Assembly: GCA_048213135.1 (NCBI GenBank)
Contig: PS015198.1
Location: forward strand, 24,102-62,893
Origin: Reclinomonas americana ATCC 50394
Lineage: Eukaryota
DNA: 38,792 bases
Direction: 5' to 3'
Below, piece by piece: positions 4,994 to 27,700 of this stretch. The notes under the pieces are model-generated. The model was not told where the DNA came from and searched no databases. It saw only the letters and a list, made by a program, of their open reading frames with translations. The position numbers were made by a program, and so were the translations under genes. How positions within the stretch are numbered: position 1 is the first letter of the stretch; each line of letters opens with the position of its first letter.

Positions 4994-7900
4994 TCATGAA
5001 GATCCCGCTGCAGCCGACGCTGAGCCTCCAGCGTCGACCACACCGACGCCAACTGCCGAGTCACACAACCGCTTCAATTCGTCGTGCACATACGATGCCG
5101 ACACGCGCGTTGCTTGCGGCCTCTGCACCGTTACACGCACAATTACCATATCACCACAAATTTTCCCACCGGTGTGTCAGCACGCAACCCAGCACTGTCG
5201 AATCAAGTTGCGAATGTCCTCCGACACTTCTGCTCGCACACTCTGGTCGTCAAGATTGCCAGGCGGAACGCTATCAAGCATGCACCGCATGATGGCCGGT
5301 ATCGTCAGTCCACCGTACGGCTCACGGCGAGTGGAGATGAACCAGAGCAGTGATCCAAGACTGAATACGTCTGCCCTTTCGTCGTACTGAACGCGAGGGC
5401 GGAACAGAAGCGTGAGGTCAACTATGTTGCTCAGCCTGCGCAGACACAGCCAGATGCTCACTTCCTGGTCCAGCATGGTCTCGGGCGCAGCGTACGCCAT
5501 CGATCCGTGCTTTGACTGCATCCTGCCGAGAGTGCCATGAATCTTGGCCTCGCCAAAGTCGCAGACCTTGGCCACGAGTCGGTCAGCGCTGATGAGAATG
5601 TCTGCAGAGATTGACGAAGCAAAGAGCAGGATCAGCCTATGGGAGTGGGGATAGACAAGCAAACACATCGATAACTTGAACTCTTCGCAGTCAGCTTGTC
5701 ATAGCAGGTAATTAAGAGAGAGCGGCATTTCTCACCACCTCACTATTATCTCCCACTGCCTTTTCCTTTCTCTAATCCTGTCTTCTCTCTGTTTACTCAC
5801 TATGACACGCAACTTTGCGGCTTGAGATCTCGATGCACCACCCGACGTGAATGCATGTGGACCACCGCCGATGCAACTTGCACGAGCAGACTGAGCAACT
5901 GTTTAGTCGTCAAGTGCTGATCTTTCACCAAGTCGTGCAGCGTCTCTGCGTTGCCTCGCTCTCCTTCTTGACCGACATATTCAAGAACGAGGCCGAGACC
6001 ACTTGGATCGTCGTCGCACACAGCAAGCAATTTCACAATGTGTGGATGACTGTATGGAAGCTCATGAAGGACGGCGGCTAGCAGTCACACACAATGGTCA
6101 TTAATGCACGCAACTCAAGCTGCACCAACAGAGAGTGCTCGTTTTCGAAGCTCTCACGGACAAGTTTCCATTCCGCCGACCGCGAATTCCGAGCTTGTTG
6201 CCTGACCTGGTACCGCTTGTACGCCACAGTTTGCGTGACACCGCCTAGGTGGACAGAAGCATGGAAGACAGCATTTTGACCTGGGAGCACGACGCAGGAG
6301 ATATCAGGAATTCCTGTCCTGCACGGACGCATCGTCGCACAAACCGATAGCGAGCTGTCTCGCCATGGGGGAGATTTGAATTTCTGAGGAAAGAACAAGC
6401 GGTGCGCGAATGGCGAATCTGGATACTCTTTCAGTTACCAACTCCGCCGTCACATGAATGCGGCTCACGTCTGCGCCAGTGAATAAATGAGGAAGAATCA
6501 GCACAAAGCGGCAAGCGCTGCCGCATTCGCAACTCTCATATGCCTGAAACAACAGACGAATGCTCTCATGCTGTCCATCCGGGAACAGTGTGTGGAGCGA
6601 GTTGCGAACCAGTCGCATAACGCTCACATACTCAACGTCTTCGAGTGTAGAAATACGAGCCAGGTGAGCCACGCGATGGCGCACGTCCCGCAAGTTTTCC
6701 ACGGCTCGAATCTGCATGGTGGAGAATTGAGCGCAAAACAACGGAGACGCACACGAGAGTCTGCGAAAGATAATGCTCACTTTGGAGTCGTCAGCGAGCA
6801 TGCGCATTGCGAGTCGGTCCTCATTCGTGACAGGATCTAGGCGGACACGAGTATTCTGCAGATCCTCAACACGACAAGCGGTGACAGGAACGAAGGTGAT
6901 GTACAACAGCAAGGTGCTCAGCAACGACACATCCATGCCACTGGTCACTCCACTCCGTTTAAATTCCCGCACTGCTTCGTAGTTTGAAGGGAAAAGCTCG
7001 ACGGAGCGCATACGGATGTTGCCACGCTTGTCTAGAGTCATTCGACAATATCTGCAACCCACAATGAGCGGTCATGACCCAGCGCGGCGCAAAATGCAGT
7101 CTCTCACCTCGGTCGAGGAGACGGCAAGCAGAGTTGCTCAATGTCGAATGCACCTGGGAAAAACCCTACGACGAGTTGTTGCAGCAGCGAGCCAAGAGCC
7201 AGAGGAATTATCTCGTGCACAACCTCGGTGAGCATCAAGATTGGACGTCGGTCGCTGCGCACATAATTGCGAGTGAGGCGTCATGATGAGAGAAAAAGCA
7301 CATGATTGCCAAGAAACCTGAGGAAGTCCATATGAAACAGAGCTCGCAGCTGACGTTCTAACTCCTTAGCTTTATGTCTCCACTCGTCGCGTTCAGCGGA
7401 GGCCTTGGCAAGATACATGCGGAGGACGTCACATTCGGCGGTATCGGAATTGTAGACCAAACCAAATGGATCGTTGCGCTTACTAACAGCCTGCAGGGAG
7501 TCGAGATTTACGACGGGGGACAACAAACAGGACGTGAATCAACTAATAAGGCAAGGCAATGAGTACTTGAGCTCACCGATTGCGAAGAGGGCACTATGAT
7601 GGGATGGGGTACATGCAAAATCGTCAGTAGTTTTTAGAACAGTTGAGCACAACATGGAAACAGACCTAGAGCCGAGGTCTGCACTCGACGGCGCTTGCAG
7701 TAAAATAGCCAGTTGGCGAGAAGGGCGACGGCAGCGGTCCACACTATGGCGAGGAAGAGATCAGACACCAAGGCCATAAGTTTCGAAATCGACCACGGGA
7801 TGCCGTTGCGTTCAGTTCGCTTTCCCAGCTCCACGCCGTCACCACCTGCCAGTGACCACTCTCTCAAGATTTCGTCACCATCAGCATGAACAATGTACCC

Positions 7901-9731
7901 ACCATCTGGAGCAACAGCAATAGAGGCTATCCAACCCAAGTGTCGCTCCAACCGTCGCACTTCTTTCCCACTGGCTAGCGACCAAACTCGCACAGTCTTA
8001 TCTGTACTACTGCTTACAACGTGCTGGCCATCGGATGTGACAGTGACAGAGCGCACCCAGCTGGTATGTCCCACCAGTCGTCGCACTTCTTCTCCAGTGA
8101 CCAGCGACCACATTCGCACACTGAGGTCATCACTCCCGCTTACAATGTACTGGCCATCAGGAGTAACGGCTACGGAACATACCCAGTCTGTGTGTCCCGT
8201 CAGCTGAAGCACTTCTTCTCCCTTCTCCAGTGACCACACACGCACTGTCTTATCATTACCACCACTCACGATGTGCTGGCTATTGGGGGTGACGGTGACT
8301 GACTGCACTTCAGCGGTGTGTCCCTTCAACTGCAACACCTCGAGTCCACTCGCCAGTGACCATATACGCACAGTGTGGTCATCACTCCCACTCACGACAT
8401 GATGGCCGTCGGGAGTGACAGCAACAGAACGCACCCAGTCGGTGTGCTCTCTCAGCTGTCTTACTAGCTCACCACTTGCCAGTGACCACACTCGCACAGT
8501 CTTGTCTCGCCCTCCACTCACAACGTACTGGCCGTCGGGAGTGACGGCAATAGAGGACACCCCAAGAGTGTGTCCCTCCAGGCGTCGCACTTCCAGTCCA
8601 CTGGCCACTGACCAAACTCGGACTATGCCGTCATCACTTCCGCCAACCACATGCTGCCCGTCTGGAGTGAAAGCGAGAAAATTTACCTTTCCAGTGTGTC
8701 CACTAATGACCCTGCACGAGGTTGCGCCCAGAGTGGCACTGAACAATTATGGCAGTCAGTCCGAGACCTTGATTTCACGCACGTCAAATTGCAGCAAACC
8801 ATGTCGATCGCGCTTCCGCGCAGTTCCATTCGCCGAAGCCGGCAGGGCACAAGCACCTGTGAGTCACGCTATCGCAGATGCCACCATTGAGGCAAGTTTC
8901 CGGACCGCAGGGGAGAATGCTGCAGGAACCATCGCCGGCCGCTCCATCATTGCAGATCGAACCCATAGGGCATGTGCAGTAGTATTTACACAACGGGCCG
9001 TAGAAACCCGGACTGCATGTGCAAAGCCCAGTACTCTGATTGCACACACCGTGCCCAGAACTTCATGCAGGTTGTAAGTGGTCAGCACCGTCGGCAAGGA
9101 ACCATGCGACTGACTAACCACAGATGTGTGCACAGATCGACAAATGCAGGAATGCTGCAGTCGATTCCATGCCACATTGGCTGGCACTTGCAGCCAAATC
9201 CGTCAGGGTTGCACACTCCGTTTCCGTGGCAAGTCACCGACGGCTGGCAGTTGCTGCACCAACGAAAAGCATCAATAACAGAATCCTACCCGCAGAGTTA
9301 ACGAAGAGACCGACGACTCTAACAAACCAACGATCGCCGCCGAAACCTGGAGCACAGAAGCACAGTCCAGTTGACGGGTTGCACGCGCCGTTCGTGGGAC
9401 CTCCGCAAGTCTGAATGTCGTGGCATTGACACTGAGGGCCGTGCCAATCAACATCACACACACACGATCCACTCTCGCATGTTCCGTGATCGGAGCTGTA
9501 CACGTGTGAGTATGGCGCAGTTTGGAAAGCTTGAGAATTCCATGCCAAACACACACTCTCGATGTAACAAGAGCAACACATACACGTGGATGCACTCAAT
9601 CTCACACATGCGGTCAGACACACATCCGGTCTCACACACCTCAACCCAACAACAATCTCCGGCTCACACAGAGTCAGACACATGCACATGGCAATCAAGC
9701 ATGTCAACATCAACACACGTATCGGCTGCAT
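4994..9731 (-). CDS. Putative single-pass receptor kinase: signal peptide + EGF-like repeats + 7 WD40 + TM + coiled coil + DZIP3-like HEPN + Ser/Thr (TKL-like) kinase, about 1160 codons
   Basis: Phase-consistent GT-AG exon chain: 9731-9670 (least certain), 9495-9328, 9253-9119, 9060-8800, 8738-7666, 7593-7577, 7490-7318, 7254-7108, 7051-6781, 6711-6534, 6470-6345, 6280-6115, 6049-5814, 5601-5462, 5386-5189, 5122-4994. Splicing restores CSGHGVC (EGF), LDHPHIVKL and HRDLKPQNILI. VAYK, DFG, YAAPE and DVFSLG are present. TM segment is LFLAIVWTAAVALLANWLFY followed by KRRR. Confidence 0.75.
7840..8710 (-). repeat. Seven highly similar WD40 repeats (126-nt / 42-aa period) within one exon
   Basis: The unit GHTxxVxSVAVTPDGQxVVSGSxDxTVRVWSLxSGxEVRxL recurs in ORF 7634..8746. 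Confidence 0.95.
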
Positions 9732-9995: not shown

Positions 9996-12900
9996 TCAAT
10001 CCGCCCGACCCACCTGCACCATGCAATGCGCCGGCCACGTCAAGTACCGATACAGGAACGACGGAATCGCAAAGCTGAAGGCGATAGTGAGAAAACACCC
10101 TCATTTGCGCCCGATGTGCATGTGGTTTTTGAAGCGCTCTCACTTTCCCTTTCCCTTTCCGCCCCCTTCTCCCTTCCACCACCCGCCTCACCTATACCGC
10201 GGCACACCCAACCGCTTGGCAGCTGCATTGCACTCCTCCAACCGCCCACCCTTGCTCCACCCAAACTGCCGCAAATACTCCACCGGCTCCGACGTGCCAA
10301 ACAAAATCGGATGATTGCGATCGCGCATAGCCTTCAAGTACACGCTGTTGAACGAGTGCTCGATCATCGGCTGCGCGCAACGGGGAGGGTGAGGACAGAG
10401 GGGGGAGGCTGAGAGGGGGGGAGGGATAAAAAAGCGCACCGTGTTGACAAAGTCGCACACCAGCTGACTGCCGCGCGGGGACATGGCGGCCGTCGTCGCC
10501 AGCGTGTCCTTCACCAGTGCCTCGGGGAGGTACATGAAGACGCCCTGCGAAATAGGGGGGAAGGGGGAAGGGGAAGGGAGAAGGGCGTTAAGGGAGAAGG
10601 GGAAGGGGAAGGGAGAAGGGGAAGGGGAATGGGAAGGGGAATGGGCAGGGGAAGGGGCAGGGGAAGGGAATGGAAGGGAGAGAGAAAGATAGAGAGCGAG
10701 CGAGAGAGGGAAAGTGATAAAGAACGAAAAAAATCGAATAGAGAGAGAGAGAACAGATAAGCAACATGGTGCAAAAAGAACTTGAGGAGCACGATGGTGA
10801 TGTACTGACAGATGTGCAAAGCACGTTCAACAGAAGGCAACACCGAATAAAGACAAGAAAAAGGGAGAGAAACAGAAGACAGCAGCCCTTCTCCCACTCC
10901 CTTCCCCTACATGGACGCAACTTGCCACACAGATAGTACACGCCCGGCGACGCCAGCATGCACGAGCCAGTGGCCGTCGCACCCAACGCGCCCTGCGCAA
11001 ACGAGGCACCAGTGGCCACCGAGAACACCGCTTGCTGACCAGACGGGTCGCTGGACTGCAGAGAAGCGCTCGAATTCACAGCCGGTGATCCGCTGCAATC
11101 GGCGGCCGCGTACAGGCCAAACGAGCCACCAGCGCCCAGCTGACGATTGGCAAAGTGCTGGCCGGCCACTGTCAGGCGATAGTCGGCGAGACCGTTCACC
11201 AGCTGCGGTGAGCGGCTCACGGCGCTGATGGAGTCTGTTGGGGCGAGGAGGGAGAAAGGAGAGAAAGAAGGAGAGAATGAGCGCAAGGCCAACATAATGG
11301 AAAGGGTGGGCTGAGCACACAAGGTAGCGTATGCGGAAAAATCATCAGCATGGATGGAGACGCAACAGACAAACACAGTGGCCACAAACTCGTTGCGAGC
11401 GGCCGTGCCAGCACCGTCCACGTCGATGCACAGGTACCGCTCACCGCCATTGGCGTCAGCCGACGCATTAAAGGTGAGCGAGGCAGCAGCGTTGGAGTTG
11501 ACGACAGTGGTCGGCGACACGCTGGTGCACGAGCGATCGAGGAAGAGAGTGGCAGTGGAGGCAGTCGACCAGGCAATGGCCGAGCCACTCACATTGATGT
11601 CGACGATCTGGCCAGCGGTGCCGGCCTTGATGGCGATGTTGGAGGGCGAGATGACTTGCGAAGAGAAAACAAAATTGGGCGCGAAAAATCTTTAGTGACA
11701 TGTGCGTTCACCCAACGGTCAATGGTTTCGCGCCCATGGGGCTCGGAAATAGGTAGATGAGGATGCGATAGGGAGGGAGGGAGGGAGGGAGGGAAGAGGG
11801 GAAGAAAGAAAGAGGTGCAAAGAGAGGGGAGAGAGAGAGAGAGCGAGAGAGAAAGGGGAGAAAGGGACAAAGTGGGGGCAGCTGCAGATGAACATGCAGA
11901 CTCACGAACACAAGGAGAATGCGAGTGTGAGAGTGAGAGAACAAGATACTGCAGCACTCGCTGTCATCGTGCGCAGCAAAGTGAGAGTGCCAGCATAAAG
12001 ATCTAGATAAGAACATCGAGTCAAACACTGCACGTGGAGCAGGCTACGCACGCACAAGATGTGCCTCTCTCAAGTACACACACACGCACATATGTGAGAC
12101 TGTTGACAATGAATTGCAAACGAGGAAAACAAGTGCAAAGAGAAAAAGCGCGCGTAAAACCGTTTGGTTGCGAACAAACTTCCTGAATCGGCAGTGTGTG
12201 GCCTGTGCGTGAGAGAGAGAGAGAGAGAGTGTGTGTGTGTGTGTGCACTCACTTACAGCTGCAGCTGTGCTGCACAGCACAGTGAGCGACAGCAGTGCGA
12301 TGAGGCACAGCGCAGTGGTGGAGCGGACAAGAGCGGGAGCTGACATGTTGTTGCCCTCCTGTGCGCACGCGCGAGAGTGGTGAGAGAGAGGCACAGGCAC
12401 GATGGTGGTGTGCGTGTGTGTGTGTGATGGAGAAAAGAGAGAGAGACACACAAGCTTGAGAGAGACGAACACAAAGCACAGCAAGAGATACCAACATGCA
12501 GTCAATGGAAAAGGAAAGCAGGGTGCGACGAAGAAGAGAGTGGAGGCACAGTGGAGGCTGTCAAGAGGGAGGCAAGAGACAAGCGGCAAGGTGAGTGCTC
12601 ACCGAGAGAGACAGAAAAAATTAAGGCTGTGTGCGCCGATCGATCGGTCTGATATCTGCGAAAGTGTATCGAAGCGCAGTCTCCGCACCGGGAATTACAG
12701 ACGACAGCAATGCATCATACACCATCTGAGACATCACAAACATGCAGCCAAACTGCAAGATTTCGGGGTTCGTTTCTCTTTGTCACTCAATATTTCTCGC
12801 TTGCACCGTCCACCATCTTCACTCTAACGCGCAAACTCATCCCTTCTGACCTTCCACGCCCTGTGTATGTATCAAACGAAGATGCAATCCTCACTCCCTC

Positions 12901-17678: not shown

Positions 17679-18627
17679 CACTCACTGCTCCACATTCCTC
17701 ACTCGCCCTCACACTCACACACACATCTTTGGCTCGCGTCTAACTCTATCACTCGCACCCACCTTCCTCACTCACTCACTGCCTATCTCATTACCTTGCT
17801 TGCAGCACCCTGCACGGACTAAATTATACTTACTTACACACTCAATCTCTAACTCCCTCACTCCCCCTTCCCCCTCTCCCCCTTTCCCCTTCCCACGCAC
17901 ATGGCGGCTCCTCCTCCTCCGCCTCAAACGCCGGAGTCGACGGCACCGCCGGCGGCGGCGACGACAACGACGACGGACTGTCGGTCACATCCGTAAACCT
18001 CGACGACGACGACGACGACACCCCCTGCTGCTGCGGCGGCGACTCCACGCCCACCGGCGACGGACTCGCCGTGGATGGCGAGCGATCGCGCATCGCGGGC
18101 GACAGCGACATGGACGACGGCGAGGCCGCGCCAGTCATCATGTCGCTGAATTGCCGCTGCCGCGCGGTGCGCCGGTACGCCGGCGCCACCACCTTTTCCA
18201 GCAGCCACGCAATGAGATCGGCGTGGTAGCGCGACGAGCGCTGCGGGTCGGTGCGGGTGACGCGGGCGAGGAAGAGAAATTTGAGTTCCTCGTCGGGCGC
18301 CAGCAGCTCCACCATGTGATACATGTCGAGGGTGCACTGCGAGAATTCTTGCAGGGCGCGGACTGGATTCAACTCCACGAGCTGCGCGGGAGGGGAGAAG
18401 GGGGAAAGGCAAAGGGTGAGGAATGGGGAAGGGTGAGAAGGGGAAGGGAACGGGATAAATATCAACAAAGGGCAAAGGAAGAGTGAGAGAGAAAAGGGAG
18501 AAGGCAGGCAGGAGAATGGAGGAGGATAGGATTGAAGGCAGAAACGGCAATCGAGGAGACGGACGAGCGCGACAGCGAATTGTCAAATAGTTGAAGAAAG
18601 ACAGCTTCATATTGAGAGAATGATGGC

Positions 18628-18680
<53 letters not shown>

Positions 18681-21600
18681 AACACTCAAATGCAAACAGA
18701 ACGAGAGAACACCGCAGAGGGAATGAGACAGACAATGCACGAGAGACGGGGAACGAAAGAACGAGAGAGAAGAGGAGACACAGACAGAGACAGAGAGATA
18801 CAGAGCGTCAAAGAGAGAGATACAGAGACAGAGTCAGAGACAAAGAGATAGATAGAGAGAAAGATAACGTGGCGAAGACAACAGAGACAGAGTCAGAGAC
18901 AAGCGAGATCGATAGAGAGAAAGAAATCGTGGCGGAGACAGAAATAGAGATAGAGAGCGAGACAGAGACAACGAAAGTGAGACAGAGAAAAGAGCGTAAG
19001 TTACGGAGGAGAGATACAACGGCGAACAAGCTAGGATACTCACACAACGTAAAGAGAGAGAGAGTGTGTGTGTGTTGAGCTTTACAAAACAGAGCGAGTG
19101 ACCGGAGACAGACACTTGTGCAATACCGCACGCAACAGAAGGAAACGAATGAGGAAAGGACGAAATGAGCACACGGATGGTGCAGCAGACAAGAACAGAG
19201 CATGCGAGTGCGAATGCAACAGAGTGAGACCAGAGGAAAACGCACTCTCTCTCTCTTTCTCTCGCGACGAGAAAGGTGTGTGGGCGACGTCGCCGAGAAA
19301 CAACAGCAGCGAGACGGAAAACAAAATCACAGTGAGCATAAAAGAGGACAGTGACGCCACTGAGAAAAAAGACATAATACAGCGCGGGCCGACATGGCAA
19401 AACAAACACAATCAAAAGTAAAGCAAGCAAGAGAATGACAGACACTGAAACACGAGAAGAAGAATACGAACAAAACTCTCACACAAGAGAGAGAGAAGGA
19501 CAATGAATCCAGATCATTAAAGTGGGTCGACAGCAAACTCACGTCCAGCATCTTCTCAATATCTTTCCCTTCTCTCTCCCATCCCTTCACCCCCTTCTCC
19601 CCTCCCTCACCCTGAACACCAAATCCGTCTTGAACCGCTGCTGCAACTGATCATTAGCCCCCTCCGCCTCCTCCGCCTCCGAACCCATACTCGACGACGA
19701 AATGGCCGGCCGCATACCCCCCGGTCCCACCCGCGGAGCCAGATGCATGCTGGGCGCGGCGTTGGCCGCTCGAGCCGCCGCCGTGGGGTCGCCACCGGGG
19801 TCCTCCTTGAGCGCAAATTTGACGGCGTGTTCGCGAAAGTAGTCAAAGGCGCGCTCGTCGCGAAGGTCCAGCAGGACTTCCAGGGCCTCGAGGTACTGCG
19901 ATGGGGAAAAGAGGAGAGGGGAGAAGGGATGAGGGGGAAGGAGAAGGGACGAGGGGAAAAGGGAGAAGTGATGAGGGAAGAGAGCAGTAGGCAGAAGGGA
20001 TGACGGAGTTGCGATCAAACACGGCGACAGACTCCGTCAAGACGCGACCTTGATACCAGTGGAGAGCGGATGGAACAGGGATGCAACAGAAGGACAGCAA
20101 ACAAAATGACAACAGAGACGAGTGGGAGGAGAGAGCGAGTGAATACTGGCATGAGAAGGGCACCAATTGAGGGCAACTGAGAACAGAGTAAAAAGAGGTC
20201 AAAGAAAAACAATTTTGCAAGCTGTCAGTCTCATATTCTCCTTGCGTCTCTCTCTTCCTCTCAACTCATTGTCTCTCACTCGTACCTTCTCATCTCAAAC
20301 CTTCTCTCATTCTCTCGTCCTCACATGTTGCAGTCTTTCTTCCCTATTCTCTCCACTCACTGCTCCTCTTATTCTCTGCCATTTTATCATCTCGCTGACT
20401 CGTTCTCTCATTCCTTGCATCTCGCCTTCATCTCACTCGCATTCTCTCATCTCGACACTCCTCTCATTACTCACACCTCACATTGCAGTCTTTCGCTCTT
20501 CCTTGTTCTCTCCACTCTGAGTCCCTCTTATTTTCCCTCATTTCCTCATCTCGCTGTCTCTCTCTCTCCCATCCTCTTTCATTGTCTCACATCTTCTCTC
20601 ACCGCCTCCTATCTCTCAGTTCTCCTCAACTCGTTGTCTCTCTCGTTCTCTCTCCTCCTCTCATGCCCTCCCATTTCGCAGTCTCTCATCTTGTCTCTCT
20701 GATTCTCAGCTCTCTCCTTCCTCTCTCACCCCCTCATCTCGCTGTCTCTCTAATTCTCCCTTTCCCAATTCTCTCTCCCCCTTCCCCTGTCCCTTCCCCT
20801 CTATCCCCCTTTCCCCAAAATGCACCTTGTGACTGTAATCCAACAACCTATGCAACGCCCGCAGCAAATCCACAATCTGCCGCACTTGCTCCGTCGTCGG
20901 CACCGGCAACCCGAGCTGCGCCAGCGACTCGGCCGACAAGCTCCCCAGATTCTGTGCCGCCGACGGCGTGCGCGGGAGTCGCGGCGCGAGTGGTGTGCGC
21001 GCCGGTCCACCACCGAGAGGTGACGCCACGGCGCGACGAGTGACCGACGGTGTCATGTTGGCCTCGCGCAGCACTTCGTAGATGCCGGAGCGGGCGCTGT
21101 GTGGAGTTGAGTGAGAGAGAGAGAGAGGATAGTAAAAGGAGAGGAGAGAGATGACTGGACGCACGGTGTGGCCACGACAATGCGCGGCGAGAAACTGGAC
21201 ATGTTCAGGCCGCGCGTGACCTCCAGAAGTTCCTCGCGCACACGCTTGGCGAGTTGTCCTGCGACGTCGAGTGACAGATGAGCATCACCACTCTCTGTAC
21301 GAAAAAGGGAGAGACGCAACTGGTGGAGTAATAAATGGGCCAGCGAGTGACGCAGCCGAGAAAGGTGCGGTAGTCCTTCCGCTTCAAAAACGTCTCCAGG
21401 ACGCGAAAGTACACGTCGCCTTTGAGAAGCGAGCGGCTGTTGAAGGGGAGGTATTCTTCCAGCAGGGGGAGTTGGTCGCACTGCGCAAAAGGGGGAAGAA
21501 GAGAGAGAGGAGAGAGATTGAGAAAGTAAGAAGACGAAGGAGAAGAAGAAGAAGAAGAGGAGGAGGAGGAGGAGGAGGAGAAGAAGAGCAAGAACAAAAA

Positions 21601-21743
21601 GAAGACGAAGAAGAAGAATAACAAGAACAAGAACAAGAAGAAGGAGAACAATTACAAGAAGAAGAATAACAAGAACAAGAAGAAGAAGAAGAAGAAGAAG
21701 AACAAGGACAGGCGAACAGGAAGAAGAAGAAGCAGAGGAGCAG

Positions 21744-21776
<33 letters not shown>

Positions 21777-24700
21777 AAGAAGAAGAAGAAGAGGAGGAGG
21801 AGAGAGAAAGACTGCATTGTTGAGATAACGAGAGGAATGTGTTGCTGCCTACTGTAAGAGAGATTGACAATGTGAGAAGCGCGGCAAGCTGGTCACATGT
21901 GCGAGACAGAAGGAACAAGGAGAAGAACAGAGCGTCTAGTCACCCTGCTTGTTTCTGTGCTCATTCTTTCTGTACTCTCTGTTTCCTCTCTCAGTGAAGC
22001 TGTTGATCCACAGAGCGTTTCTTCTTCTTCTTCTTCTTCTTCTTCGTCTTCTTCTTTGTGATCCACACAAACAAGGCGAGTGGCAACCCATTGCTTCCAT
22101 TATTCAACAGACACGGACTCTCTTCTCCTTCTCCTTCTTTCTGTTTCTATACTGAAGAGGTGACAGGTAAGCCATTCTTCTCCTCGTTTCGAATCGACGC
22201 ACGCTGTTTCGTTTTCTATTCCTTGCTGCCCCACACTCGCACGGTGACGCACAACACATTATTCTCAATAGTTGAATGAGACAGACATTTCTTTCTCCCT
22301 CTACTTTTCTCTGTTCCACAGTAAAAGGACATAGACTCTCTATTTCTCCAAGGTACGCATCCAGCAATCCATTGTTTCAATCGATGCAGACATTTTTGCT
22401 TTTCCGTCCCACACCAAGCCCACGCTCGCTAATTCAATCTCTTATCCTCTTGTCCTTCTTCTTGCTGTCTCGCACGAATAAGCAACAGGCACACCATTCT
22501 CCTCCCCTCTCCATTCCCTATTCTCTCACGCTCTGATAAGTTCAATCTCTTCCTCTCGTTCTTCTTCTTGCTGTCTCACATGGACAAGCAACATGCAAAC
22601 CACTCTCGTCCTCCTTCCCACCCTTTCCCTATTCTGCCTCCCCAATCCTTTCTCGTCGCGCCCACCCTTTCCTTTATCCCCACCCTTTCTCTTATCTCAC
22701 CCTTTCCCTATTCTCCCTCCCCACCCTTTCCCTTTTTTCCCCTTTTCACGAAACTTCCGCTAATCTCTCCGCAAACACCGCCCAGTAATCGCGCGTGGCA
22801 CGCGGCAGAATAAACTCGCTGTACACCGTAATGGCCGTGCGGAACTGCTTGCGCTCCCTCCACAAGTGCGCGGCGTAGTAGTCGGCGATCTCCACCACAG
22901 ATTTCACCCTATTGGCAAGTGAGTCACGAGTCACCTTCCCCGATTTGTCCATCAACCGCGCAACTGATTCGCTGTCTTGGCCGCCTGCGTGGCGTCCGTA
23001 AATCTCCCCTCCATGACAAACGAGAGCACCCTGTGATCCCATCCCCCGTGTCAGTCCCAGTGAGAGCCTCTCAGAATGCAGTCTGCAATGACGCACCTCT
23101 CGGCCGTGTTCAGTGGTCTCAGCAGGTACACCTCCGAGTCGAGCACGAAATACACCACCGGCACGTCGCGCGTGTTGGTGGAGGTCGAGTGGCGCCCAGA
23201 GTAACCGGGTCGGCTGATGGAGCCGAAGGAGCCGAGTGGTTGCATGCCGTCGAGGAGGGGGGACTCCTGAGAGGAGGGTGAGGCGCCAAAGAGGAAGGGG
23301 GGAGAAAAGGGAAAAGAAAAAGGGAGAAGAAAGGGAGGAAGGGAGAGGAGGAGGGGATAGGAAAGCGAAAAATGATAGGCTGGGGGAGAAAGAGAATTGT
23401 ATCTGTCTCTCTGCACCTTCTCTCTACACGCACAGCAAGAATGAGCGAGAGATCAGTTGGATCACGCATTTCCTCACATGCATCTGCAGAATTTAAGAGC
23501 CTCTCTTTGTCTCTAACGTGCTGAAGCATTCGCTTCTTCTGTTTTATGTCTCTGTTCTCACCCGTCTCGCGCACACACACATCAAGGATGAGCAAGAGCT
23601 TTGACGGAAAATGCGCTTCCTCAATGCATCAAAGCAAGAGACTCTCTTTGTCCCTTGCTTGCTCCTGCTCCTTCTGCAAATTTCTCTCCCATCTCTCACA
23701 CCGTGTAACAAGAATGAGCGAGAGATCTGACGGACCATGCTTTTCTCACAAGGCATCTGCGGATCTCTCGTTGTCTCTTCGCAGTATCTCGCTTCCCTCA
23801 CACACATACAGAAAGAACTGGTGAGAGATCTGACGGATCATGCCTTCCACGCCTACATCTGCAGACTTTGTCAACCTCTCACTGTCTTGTTCCTCCCTGA
23901 AGCATTTCGCTTCTTCTGTTTTCTGTCTGTCTTCTCCCGTCTCACACCCGCAGAAGAGAGAAAGAGCGGGAGAACTGTCATATCATACCTTCCTCGCATC
24001 ACGTGTCTCTCTTGTTTCTCTCAACTCGCTCCTTTTCTTGCTCTTCCACATCACAAGCTCACTCTCATCCTTCTCCTATCACCTCCCTTCTCCAGATTCC
24101 CTTCCCCACCCATCCCTCTCACGCAACTTCCATTATTGTCGATGCATGCATATCAAACGTCGTAAACGTGCCGAAAAATCTGCAGCACTTTCAGTCACCC
24201 GCACACCCCCTTCACTCCTTCCATGCCCACTCACCTCCTCGCCGTCGAGTGCGGGAACGGCAACACCTGCTGAAACTCAAAATCGGGCGCCGCCGAGTAC
24301 AGCGACACCACGGGAATGGAGTGTTGGCGCGTGTCGGAGGCGCGCAGCTCGAGCGGGACAAAGAACTGCACGAGCTGGCTCGTTGCCGGCACCTCCTCGG
24401 TGACCACCACGACCTTGTCGTCGATTTCGGCCACGGCGACGACGGGGGCAGTGTGGTCGAGCACGCTGTTGATTTGGATGGCGGCGCTGAAAGAGGGAAG
24501 GGAAAGGGACGAAGGGCAAAGGGAAGTGAGATTGCATCGAAGGGAGAGGGGCGAAAATGGATTGCGTGTGAGACCGAGCACAACAAGGGACTCGAAAAGA
24601 GCAGCGATGGATGTAAATGCGTGCAAGAACAAGAGAGGCAAGCGGAAAGGGTTGAGAGCAGGAGAGCAGCAGTGGATGGAATGCGTGTCGTACAAAAGAG

Positions 24701-27700
24701 AGCATGGGAAGAGGTGCACGCGCGTGTGGAGCGCATCACGAAGAGACAGGGAGATGAAACACAAGAGAGACGTTGTAATAGCAACGGATTGTATGCATGT
24801 GACAGAAAGAGAGGCTCGCGTCAATGACGGAAGCAACGAGACAGGAGAGCAGTGAAGGATGCAACGAGACAGGAGAGCAGCAACGTATGCGTGCCCATCA
24901 ATGAGAAAAAAGAGAAGGAGGACAGGCAAGGAGGACAACAATGGATAAGAATGCGAGCGAGAGCAATGGCGGCGCTTGTCTCGCAAAACAATTGAGTGGA
25001 GAGCTGTGCTCTCTCATTCGGCCGTGCTACCTTAGTCTCTCCCACTTCGAAGACTCCTCCTACTCAGTGACTCTCTTCCTCACACTCCTTCTCCTCTTCC
25101 TCCTCTTCAAGAACAACCATCAAGTGGGACATAAAGACACCGCAAATGGGAACAGGAGTCCAGACAGAGATGGGCTCGAGGCACACCGAACAAAGCACGC
25201 AAAACGAAAGAGCACACCAGCAGGAAGGAGAGGCACATGTGTGAGGACAGAGTAGGCGGTGTGGAAGAATAAGAGACAGTCCGTGTGTGGGTAAGAGCAA
25301 CTAAGTGGGACATAAAGACACCGCAAATGGGGACAGGAGTCAGACAGAGATGGGCTCGAGGCACAAAAAAGGAGGCACGCAAACGAAATGGCATACCAGC
25401 AGGAAGGAGAGGCACATGTGTGAGGACAGAGTAAGAAGGTGTGGAAGAATAAGAAAGTGATTCCGCGTGTCTGTGAGCGAGAGAGTGACGGGCCGGAATG
25501 AGAACCTCTCTCTCTCTCTCATGCACACACTCTCCCTCCCTCCCTCCCTCCCTCCCTCCCTCCCTCCCTCCCCATCCCTTCACCCTTTCCCATACACGCA
25601 ACGAATCCTGCATCAACTTCCTCCCGTCAATGACGAACAGACTGCATCCGCTCGTCACATAGATGCTGGCGTTGCCGAGGAAGAAGTTGACGGCTGCCAC
25701 ACAGAGATGAGTCATCGTAGCCGGCAAACACCTCCACATCCGACGCAACGAATATCGGGACGATCGTAAAAGCGCACGAGAATCTGCTGCCGTCGGAGGC
25801 TGTACACCACGACCTCCTCGTTGTTGGTCAGCACGAAACGGTCGCTGCGATCACGACAGAGTCAGTTTCTCCTCCCGATGCACTCTTTGTTTGACAGCGC
25901 GCAACTTCAAGTGCACAATCTTGGTCACGGGAAGGTGCGGATTCTGCAGCTTCACCACCACCGACGCACTGTGGCCGATGATCAGGCGGATGCCGCGCTT
26001 CACCACGCGACCGGCCACGCCGCAGTACACAACGCCCATGTTCTCGCCGAGGGGTTCAGTGACGCAGAGGCTGTGGACTGTGTGGGGGGATGGTGAGGGC
26101 AGGGAGGAGGAGGAAGGAGAAGGGTGAGCAGGCACGGAACTGGGTGTTTCGAGGGATTTGCCAAAGGCCAGCACAGAGTCGTCGAGAAAGTCGTATACCA
26201 TGATGCGGCCGTCTTGGCCGCCGCTGACGACGGCGGTGTCTTGCAGGCAGATGGAGAGGACGGCACCCTGTAAAAAGGGGAAGGGGGGTGTAAGGGAATG
26301 GGGGACAAGGGGGAAGGAGGAGGAAGAAGAGGAGAAGATGAAGAAGAGGAGAACGCCCTCTCTGTCTCTCACACACTCTCACTCCGTCTCTCGCTCTCAC
26401 TCCCTCTCAAGGAAAAACGAAGGAAGAAGGAGGAGGACGAGAACACATCCTCCTTCCCTTCTCCCTCGCCCGTTTCTGTCATTCTGCGTCACTCGCCTCA
26501 CATGTTCTCTGTCTCTTGGAAAAGTGAGGAGGAAGGTAAGAGGAACACTGTCTCTCTTTCTTCTATTCTGTCCGCTCTTTCTCTCTCCGTTTCTCTCTCT
26601 CTCTCTCTTGTGAAGAAGAACGAGAAGATAAAAACGACGACGGAGACTGAGACTACATCCTCTCACTCTCTCTTGAAGAACAAGAAGAGGGAAAGGATGA
26701 GGGACGAGAGGAGAAGAAGAGGAACACTGTCTCTTTCTCTCTCAAGAACAAGAACAAGAACAAGAAGAACGGAGAAGATGAGAAGACAGCAGTCTCTCTC
26801 CCTCTGTGAAGAAGAACGAGAAGATGAAAACGACGACGGAGACCGAGACTACAGCCTCTCACTCTCTCTTGAAGAACAAGAATAGGGAAAGGGCGAGGGA
26901 CGAGAAGAGGAGAAGAAGCTCTCTCAAGAAGAAGAAGAAGAACAACAACAACAACAAGAACGGAGACGATGAGAAGACAGCAGTCTCTCTCCCTCTCTGA
27001 AGAAGAACGAGAAGATAAAAACGACGACGGAGGCTGAGACTACAGCCTCTCACTCTCTCTCATGAAGAACAAGAAGAGGGAAAGGGCGAGGGACGAGAAG
27101 AGGAGAAGAAGCTATAAGAGGAACAAGAACAAGAAAAACGGAGAAGATGAGAAGACAGCAGTCTCGCTCTCCCTCTCTGAAGAAGAACGAGAAGATAAAA
27201 CCGACGACGGAGACTGAGACTACAGCCTCCCTCTCTCTCTCTCTTGAAGAACAAGAAGAGGGAAAGGAGGAGGGACGAGAGGAGAAGAAGAAGCTCTCTC
27301 AAAGAGAAGAAGAAGAAGAACAACAAGAACAAGAACGGAGAAGATGAGAAGACAGCAGTATCTCTCTCCGTTTCTGAAGAAGAATGAGAAGATGAAAACG
27401 ACGACGGAGGCTGAGACTACAGCCTCCCTCTCGCTCTTGAAGAACAAGAAGAAGAAGAAGAACAACAACAACAACAAGCACGGAGAAGATGAGAAGACAG
27501 CAGTCTCTCTCTCCCTCTCTGAAGAAGAACGAGAAGATAAAAACGACGACGGAGACTGAGACCACAGCCTCTCTCTCTCTCTCTCTCTTGAAGTACAAGA
27601 AGAGGGAAAGGATGAGGGAGAAGAAGAAGAGGAAACACTGTCTCTCTTTCTCTCTCGTGTCACTCTCTGTCACACATACACTTTCTCTCTCAGGAAGAAG

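Follow-up and report, generated by a model that had tools for sequence, protein, structure and literature searches.

Does a single gene of Reclinomonas americana ATCC 50394 encode a membrane receptor in which an EGF and WD40 ectodomain is coupled to both a HEPN-type RNase and a protein kinase? The question is raised by a locus on contig PS015198.1 (GenBank assembly GCA_048213135.1), located in a window of 38,792 nucleotides (nt) that corresponds to positions 24,102 to 62,893 of the forward strand and was analysed over its whole length. An original prediction, made from the letters of this window, had described the locus as one gene for an EGF-WD40-transmembrane (TM)-HEPN-kinase receptor. The window is eukaryotic draft sequence with 9 runs of N and many CT/CA microsatellites; coordinates are window positions, and all relevant features are on the minus strand and are given in its reading direction. 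To our knowledge, eukaryotic HEPN RNases coupled to a kinase are limited to the kinase-KEN pair found in Ire1 and RNase L. Both proteins act as central switches in stress and antiviral responses. In invertebrate NLRs, DZIP3-type HEPN domains are presumed to serve as effector heads.

Between ATG 9731 and TGA 4994, the minus strand most likely carries a single gene of about 1200 codons for a predicted single-pass type I membrane protein. Read from the N terminus, the product would have a signal peptide and some five EGF-like modules ahead of a WD40 propeller of seven blades; a TM helix with KRRR behind it would lead to the other side of the membrane, where a short linker, helical and charged, would be followed by a HEPN-like domain with the motif RHRVAH and a TKL-like Ser/Thr kinase. 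That all of these parts are correctly named and encoded by one gene, as an EGF-WD40-TM-HEPN-kinase receptor, is a proposition for and against which we find the balance even. The earlier observation was partly confirmed and its interpretation partly supported: the coordinates, the reading frame and the EGF, WD40, TM and kinase parts held, whereas the HEPN domain and the joining of the two halves are unproven.

Stop-to-stop frames were collected between 9806 and 4994. Cys-rich EGF-like pieces come first in order, followed by a 370-codon WD40 frame (8746-7634) that ends in a hydrophobic helix, KRRR and TAA; after it come an 85-codon frame (7538-7281), a 255-codon frame (7071-6304) and the kinase pieces. 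When these were joined in a 12-exon model from ATG 9731 to TGA 4994, the resulting frame was open throughout and encoded 1212 amino acids. Eight introns of the model (9327-9254, 9118-9061, 8799-8739, 6344-6281, 6114-6050, 5813-5602, 5461-5387 and 5188-5123) are supported by the encoded domains. With each removal a familiar pattern reappears, namely the EGF cysteines, HRDLKPQN-ILIS, the strand ahead of HPHIV, the CW motif of the kinase C-lobe or the sequence that follows APE. Seven of the eight measure 58-75 nt and one 212 nt; seven donors begin with GTT and the eighth is GTGAGC, and a CTRAY motif stands 13-36 nt before the AG in four of them. Such a preference for GTT is unusual, GTA or GTG being the usual beginning, and the octamer GTTGCGTG opens three of the eight introns (at 6114, 5813 and 5188, minus strand). 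A position weight matrix (PWM) for splice sites was built on these 8 sites; in leave-one-out scoring, donors ranged from -8.4 to 8.3 and acceptors from -13.3 to 6.3.

The ectodomain was assigned from four exons. Exon 1 (9731-9328) starts with ATG 9731 and encodes a hydrophobic N-terminus resembling a signal peptide (about 9731-9666), together with Cys-rich sequence and the first of the EGF-like modules; its TG-rich part may hold one further intron. Exon 2 (9253-9119, EGF-like module) is preceded by intron 9327-9254 (74 nt, donor GTTTGT), and exon 3 (9060-8800, EGF-like modules) by intron 9118-9061 (58 nt, donor GTTAGT, CTGAC branch motif). Exon 4 (8738-7666), preceded by intron 8799-8739 (61 nt), encodes the WD40 repeats, the TM helix and the basic KRRR stop-transfer signal. 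In Pfam scans, the exon 1 piece matched EGF_Teneurin with 26.5 bits (cut-off 24.3), and exon 3 matched EGF_2 with 31.3 bits (cut-off 22.1) and EGF with 26.1 bits (cut-off 21.5). Exon 2 alone gave EGF matches below the cut-offs (21.4 versus 24.3 and 20.5 versus 22.1); by our own reading, joining it to exon 1 completes the EGF cysteine pattern over the junction. The first 266 residues, which precede the WD40 part, contain 44 Cys, compared with 3 in the WD40 region. The modules combine profile scores above the cut-off with the six-Cys pattern, and are EGF-like in this sense.

The WD40 family (PF00400) was matched with 238.5 bits over 6 stretches. Seven units of 40-42 residues each (one of them read by eye from the frame) were delimited at about 8707-7832, with a repeat period of 126 nt and 70% DNA matches, and this number is sufficient for a closed propeller. 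The repeats share 43-46% identity with actinobacterial and cyanobacterial WD40 proteins, and we take them to resemble the repeat type of STAND/NLR-like sensors. The EGF part was joined to the WD40 frame because the latter lacks a start codon and the phase of the 61-nt intron is compatible; EGF and WD40 modules must therefore be on the same side of the membrane.

A type I topology with a signal peptide and one TM segment is predicted from hydropathy. The Kyte-Doolittle profile has a signal-like N-terminal peak in residues 1-22, reaching 2.31 at residues 4-22, and a TM peak in residues 584-612 (~7780-7700), reaching 2.21 at residues 587-612, with KRRR behind it; a third peak, at residue ~726, is weaker and belongs to the HEPN-like domain. 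As a rule, receptor kinases carry their kinase in the cytosol, behind a TM helix. Two points weigh against this topology. WD40 propellers are usually cytosolic, and the helix MDVSLL...ITFVPV of the HEPN-like domain is hydrophobic enough that it may be mistaken for a TM segment, or may be one. This helix (~6936-6880, minus strand) has a Kyte-Doolittle value of at least 1.6 over 19 residues and is probably a buried core helix.

The kinase is distributed over several exons behind the HEPN-like part. The N-lobe exon (6280-6115), preceded by intron 6344-6281 (64 nt), carries a degenerate Gly-loop, the lysine of VAYK and a candidate alpha-C glutamate. It is followed, after intron 6114-6050 (65 nt, donor GTTGCGTG), by an exon (6049-5814) running from the HPHIV strand to the catalytic loop HRDLKPQ, with HRD at 5835-5827. 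Removal of intron 5813-5602 (212 nt, donor GTTGCGTG) restores HRDLKPQN-ILIS and leads into the activation-segment exon (5601-5462), which contains DFG (5560-5552) and APE. The C-lobe exon (5386-5189) is preceded by intron 5461-5387 (75 nt, donor GTGAGC), which is stop-free and a multiple of three in length, and the last exon (5122-4994, TGA at 4996-4994) by intron 5188-5123 (66 nt, donor GTTGCGTG). Nothing follows the kinase except a short C-terminal tail of ~45 residues; no further domain is present.

Pfam Pkinase was matched twice above its cut-off of 31.7 bits, by the exon 6049-5814 (50.5 bits) and by the frame 5698-5180 (39.5 bits); the N-lobe exon on its own was not recognised by Pfam. 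In our own reading, the model contains the Lys of VAYK, a candidate alpha-C Glu, HRDLKPQN (of Ser/Thr type), DFG and APE, and the profile matches together with the catalytic Lys, HRD...N, DFG and APE identify a eukaryotic protein kinase. The Gly-rich loop departs from GxGxxG: its first Gly alone is kept, across the 6344-6281 junction. The catalytic-loop exon matched 499 kinase sequences of the PDB at E ≤ 0.01, that is, kinases generically. For the C-lobe, the nearest solved chains were those of TAK1, followed by RAD53, CTR1 and MLT/ZAK, and were mostly of TKL type. Comparison of the C-lobe with longer proteins confirmed 0 of 579 candidates, and therefore no annotated gene model or related architecture was retrieved. 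We regard the domain as a predicted divergent TKL-like Ser/Thr kinase. Because the Gly-loop is degenerate, kinase activity is uncertain and a nucleotide-binding regulatory role is possible; the loop hints at a use of the kinase fold for regulation as in RNase L, and autophosphorylation may equally well occur.

The HEPN-like exon (7051-6345) encodes the HEPN-like domain (~7005-6520), with RHRVAH at 6681-6664 and the hydrophobic helix starting with MDVSLL upstream of it, and also the putative first kinase strand. Domain and strand thus share an exon and an open frame, after which the 64-nt intron follows. Given the continuity of the HEPN-like frame into the putative strand, the HEPN-like domain and the kinase certainly belong to one gene, and this link of the prediction is robust.

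Is the region 7005-6520 a HEPN domain? Three overlapping queries matched Pfam HEPN_Swt1 (PF18731) with 16.0, 16.4 and 17.3 bits (E 0.015-0.006), in each case around RHRVAH. The 16.0-bit match came from the 255-codon frame, for which Pfam returned no other family. This motif is intact and has the Rx4H spacing with a His directly after the Arg; in the HEPN superfamily, the motif is Rx4-6H, usually with N, D or H right after R (PMC3710099). Of 30 matches in the ESM Atlas, 12 belonged to the DZIP3-like HEPN family set (top score 0.92, 186 of 256 shared features), and further ones to HEPN_DZIP3/DUF4559 and HEPN_Swt1 clusters. A bacterial profile of our own was prepared from planctomycete Swt1-like HEPN domains, 24 of the 30 fetched being aligned. 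It matched the region with 11.2 bits in hmmsearch, a score reached by 0 of 2000 shuffles (maximum 10.0), and with P 0.0064 in hhalign (31 columns, probability 5.9%). By eye, LRDVRHRVAH is identical in 8 of 10 residues to LRDVRNRWAH of one planctomycete domain (L087), and the upstream MDVSLL matches the WDxxxLL helix of bacterial HEPN domains, the order of the two motifs being correct. As to the occurrence of PF18731 itself, it was found in 36 of 301 sampled planctomycete genomes, mostly in open frames of two size classes, about 245-290 amino acids or about 1100-1200 amino acids.

Several results weigh against a HEPN fold and speak for a different reading of the same receptor kinase gene, in which 7005-6520 would be a helical domain specific to the lineage, juxtamembrane or regulatory, perhaps a bundle similar to that of MLKL, and would hold its Rx4H-like string by chance. 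The Pfam scores of 16-17 bits are below the curated cut-off of 27.5 bits, and the match covers only positions 63/64-101 of the 115 profile positions. Every HEPN profile signal originates from the same ~35 residues, and the matches to HEPN_Swt1 and to our planctomycete profile are not independent; the hhalign probability is low, and the margin between the best shuffle and the real score is that between 10.0 and 11.2 bits. An insert of ~50 residues separates the two HEPN-like motifs in comparison with the bacterial domains. ESM recognition was 1927, below the value of 2300 that is reached by 91 of 100 known-family proteins. Both single-sequence AlphaFold models were of low confidence (predicted local distance difference test, pLDDT, 31.1 and 38.3), too low for a fold search; the second (pLDDT 38.3) is all-helical and has the motif at the end of the long helix 88-115, which agrees with a HEPN core (four helices, with the motif closing helix 3) but carries no weight as evidence at this confidence.

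Searches for homologues of the HEPN-like piece were likewise empty. Confirmed matches numbered 0 of 1444 candidates among longer proteins, 0 of 65 candidates at E ≤ 10 among proteins of similar length and 0 of 169 pattern matches in JGI metagenome contigs; phmmer against 1,835,955,588 representatives gave 0 at E ≤ 0.001, and the PDB gave 0 at E ≤ 10. PADLOC and NCBIfam yielded no match, the profile of DZIP3-type HEPN (PF18738) was not matched at E ≤ 10, and paralogues of the piece within the window were not found.

The reading as a chance motif in another helical domain leaves several coincidences to be accounted for. Three methods agree on the clade (Pfam HEPN_Swt1, the DZIP3/Swt1 clusters of ESM and our bacterial profile), the identity to the L087 domain extends over 8 of 10 residues, the upstream MDVSLL/WDxxxLL match stands in the right order, and the Arg is followed, as usual, by a polar residue, here His. 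We consider that reading improbable, and hold it rather likely that 7005-6520 is a HEPN fold, very divergent and of the Swt1/DZIP3 clade. The HEPN domain named in the original prediction is made plausible, though not proven, by the intact RHRVAH, the ESM neighbours and the shuffle-calibrated profile match, and falls short in the Pfam score.

How the EGF-WD40-TM half is connected to the HEPN-like-kinase half depends on the stretch around the TAA at 7636-7634, which closes the WD40-TM open frame (8746-7634). The following signals are present: GGTCTGT with the cut after its first G (7666/7665), CTGAC at about 7627-7623 and CATAG ending at 7594; then a stretch of 17 nt (7593-7577), GTGAGC at 7576 and CTGCAG ending at 7491. 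In the model, these delimit a proposed intron 1 of 72 nt (7665-7594) that holds the TAA, a proposed in-frame micro-exon (7593-7577) and a proposed intron 2 of 86 nt (7576-7491) with a pyrimidine-rich 3' end, followed by the juxtamembrane or linker exon (7490-7318). The latter lies in the open frame 7538-7281 and encodes a charged helical stretch; its 'coiled coil', searched as the 85-codon frame, matched no Pfam family. When 8746-7666, 7593-7577 and 7490-7281 were joined, a single open frame was obtained, and with 7576-7491 removed the upstream and downstream frames coincide and are broken by this one TAA alone. The stop, the intron and micro-exon boundaries with their signals, and the in-frame joining of the TM tail to the downstream exons were all found in the sequence exactly as the original prediction had given them, and its EGF, WD40 and kinase domains (by Pfam above the cut-offs) and TM helix (by the hydropathy peak of 2.21 and KRRR) were upheld as well.

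The predicted splice signals look genuine. Only one AG (7595-7594) is available between the TAA and 7577, and CTGAC stands 31 nt before it; a comparable CTRAY precedes 159 of the 5825 AGs of the window (2.7%). Donor 7576 scores 4.3 and has the same hexamer, GTGAGC, as the supported donor 5461. Acceptor 7491 scores 6.8, the highest of 22 AGs scored in 7800-7280; each strand has about 50 acceptors of this strength in 36.5 kb. The proposed lengths of 72 and 86 nt are in keeping with the 58-75-nt class of supported introns. In organisms with short introns, splicing is thought to define introns rather than exons, and micro-exons are tolerated.

The same stretch can be read plainly as two adjacent genes on the same strand: a complete EGF-WD40-TM protein that ends at TAA 7634, and a soluble HEPN-like-kinase protein that possibly starts at ATG 7418. 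The first product would then be a surface or secreted protein with a cytosolic tail of ~20 residues, and the splice-like signals would be due to chance or to an intron in the 5' untranslated region (UTR) of the second gene. The TAA is indeed the clean end of a 370-codon frame, an in-frame ATG is available at 7418, and a 17-nt micro-exon is an unusual requirement. Acceptor 7594 scores low, at -5.7, with the PWM resting on only 8 sites. Of 196 GT-AG pairs, 55 yield an in-frame single intron, and 141 of 1000 shuffles of 7690-7419 contained an in-frame path of one or two introns with comparable site scores, the score thresholds of this test having been chosen post hoc; frame compatibility by itself is not beyond chance. 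Three donors give introns of a multiple of three nt with acceptor 7594, namely 7665 (72 nt), 7653 (60 nt) and 7650 (57 nt), the first two being confirmed as open by script and the third worked out by hand; donor 7653, GTTGTGCT, resembles the recurrent GTTGCGTG. An in-frame path is also given by one intron of 194 nt (7684-7491; donor score -6.2). Given the shuffles and the 55 in-frame pairs, the micro-exon model is therefore one of several. All junctions are, moreover, predicted from sequence alone.

Against two genes stands the distance of only 216 nt from the TAA to ATG 7418, the first in-frame ATG downstream, a tight interval for the 3' end of one gene and the promoter and 5' UTR of the next. 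Upstream of this ATG no stop interrupts the frame as far as 7538. The strongest acceptor of the region (7491) lies just before the downstream frame, of which 24 codons ahead of the ATG are open; CTGAC precedes the only AG that is available, and the two frames coincide once 7576-7491 is removed. We judge two genes to be unlikely, though by no means negligible. Two further candidates were rejected: a single intron 7665-7491, which is out of frame, and a variant code with TAA as a sense codon, since no in-frame TAA or TAG occurs in the 370-codon WD40 frame or in the remaining exons and the model ends with TGA.

The locus might also be a former single gene that is now broken or has been mis-assembled, the TAA being a nonsense mutation, as in a pseudogene or a null allele, or a base error and intron 1 being absent. 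This would explain why the same frame is found on both sides with a single stop between them, and assembly quality is modest, as seen from the 9 runs of N and from a 300-nt duplication of 97% identity that adjoins a gap of 20 N. The other exons are all intact, however, and the catalytic motifs are kept; the stop, furthermore, sits exactly among donor, branch and acceptor signals. This explanation was considered very improbable.

Downstream of the linker exon, intron 7317-7052 (266 nt) is an outlier in length. Its donor at 7317 scores 10.2, the best of the region. As a side observation, the interval can also be divided into three short introns (47, 70 and 56 nt) and two micro-exons (7254-7224 and 7153-7108), in frame and open; the first donor of this path scores -8.7, compared with 10.2 for 7317. 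Treatment of 7317-7052 as a single 266-nt intron is uncertain.

The link between the EGF-WD40-TM and the HEPN-kinase halves is the weak point of the one-gene model. We nevertheless think it likely that the whole locus is one gene, with TAA 7634 being removed by a short intron that ends at AG 7594 and with the 17-nt micro-exon and intron 7576-7491 following. When a single gene and a HEPN fold are required jointly, the arguments on the two sides are about equally weighty.

On the one-gene reading, the following mechanism can be envisaged. Binding to the EGF/WD40 ectodomain, or clustering via the linker, would bring two cytosolic parts together; the paired HEPN domains would form an RNase site, and the kinase would gate this pairing by trans-phosphorylation or by nucleotide binding. 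HEPN RNases generally work as dimers in which two Rx4-6H motifs are paired, and in Ire1 and RNase L the HEPN RNase is assembled through dimerisation of the kinase domain. With the TM helix, charged linker, HEPN-like domain and kinase in succession, clustering of the receptor would naturally pair the HEPN domains. A switch of RNase and kinase by ligand-driven dimerisation, as proposed originally, is inferred by analogy. If the receptor senses a ligand or a non-self surface, RNA cleavage could serve defence, suicide or translational shut-down. That the principle of Ire1 and RNase L was invented independently at a cell-surface or luminal receptor, by which an outside signal would lead to RNA cleavage, is a possibility that we hold to be doubtful. 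If it is true, kinase gating of an RNase has evolved on more than one occasion, a membrane receptor could be coupled to RNA cleavage without intermediate steps, and a case would be added of a classical WD40 propeller that faces outward. Should the halves prove to be two genes, the combination of HEPN-like domain and kinase in a soluble protein would be less striking, yet still undescribed.

The neighbourhood is as orphan-like as the receptor-kinase gene itself. Ten long neighbouring open frames (10188-11691, 17842-23628, 25851-26378 and elsewhere) matched no Pfam family at E ≤ 0.01, and the window contains no tRNA and no Rfam match. A direct repeat of 300 nt (1261-1560 and 1872-2171, 97% identity, spacing 611 nt) lies beside a gap of 20 N (1172-1191). 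Read on the minus strand, it duplicates the beginning of a hydrophobic open frame; it arose either by recent tandem duplication or through an error of assembly. The frame is presumably reminiscent of a cation/Ca exchanger repeat, and 1484-2104 gave no Pfam match.

How, then, does the predicted protein compare with known systems? MLKL likewise has an all-helical N-terminal effector, a four-helix-bundle killer domain, directly before a TKL-like pseudokinase fold; unlike the protein proposed here it is soluble, the Rx4H motif and the HEPN evidence argue for another relationship, and no family of MLKL type appeared in the Pfam scans. A precedent for an outward-facing propeller on a receptor kinase is provided by CRINKLY4 (ACR4), which has an extracellular seven-blade 'WD40' propeller, a Cys-rich domain, a TM segment and a Ser/Thr kinase (bioRxiv 10.1101/2020.08.10.245050). 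In CRINKLY4 the propeller comes first, whereas here the EGF modules do; its blades contain one disulfide each, a feature that the present repeats, with 3 Cys in the WD40 region and a classical GH...WD repeat, do not share; and it has no HEPN-like domain.

With respect to the HEPN-like part, the Swt1/DZIP3 type is suggested by Pfam and the ESM Atlas, below family thresholds. In cnidarian NLRs, which make use of WD40 repeats too, NACHT is most often combined with DZIP3-type HEPN (PMC8260672), and Table 1 of PMC3710099 gives fusions of DZIP3/Swt1 HEPN to NACHT, Death, CARD, LRR, TPR and RING, with no kinase partner in that table. Unlike these NLR-like proteins, the protein proposed here would combine the domain with a kinase and would span the membrane, and it has no NACHT/STAND ATPase; its gene structure, moreover, suggests a source other than an animal. 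In the literature, no HEPN domain N-terminal to a kinase and no EGF-WD40-TM-HEPN-kinase protein was found, although supplementary architecture lists (PMC3710099, Additional file 1) might hold one.

The closest parallel is with Ire1 and RNase L, in which a kinase or pseudokinase and KEN, an RNase of the HEPN family, are joined in one polypeptide (PMC3710099). As in Ire1, a kinase fold and a HEPN-type module would be located in the cytosol, behind a single TM segment and a sensor, all of this being predicted here. Unlike in Ire1 and RNase L, and in agreement with the original prediction, the HEPN-like domain stands N-terminal to the kinase, which is followed in the model by the ~45-residue tail and no KEN domain; the KEN family gave no match in the Pfam scans and was absent from the ESM Atlas neighbours. 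The sensor differs from that of Ire1 as well, consisting here of EGF and WD40 modules that would face the cell exterior or a lumen. Ire1 was not among the 25 solved-chain matches of the C-lobe, and its chains appeared only among the generic matches of the catalytic-loop exon. Because it has no KEN domain after the kinase, the predicted gene product is not a member of the Ire1/RNase L family; if real, it is a variant of the theme of sensor, TM segment and kinase plus HEPN, in an orphan, fast-diverged gene.

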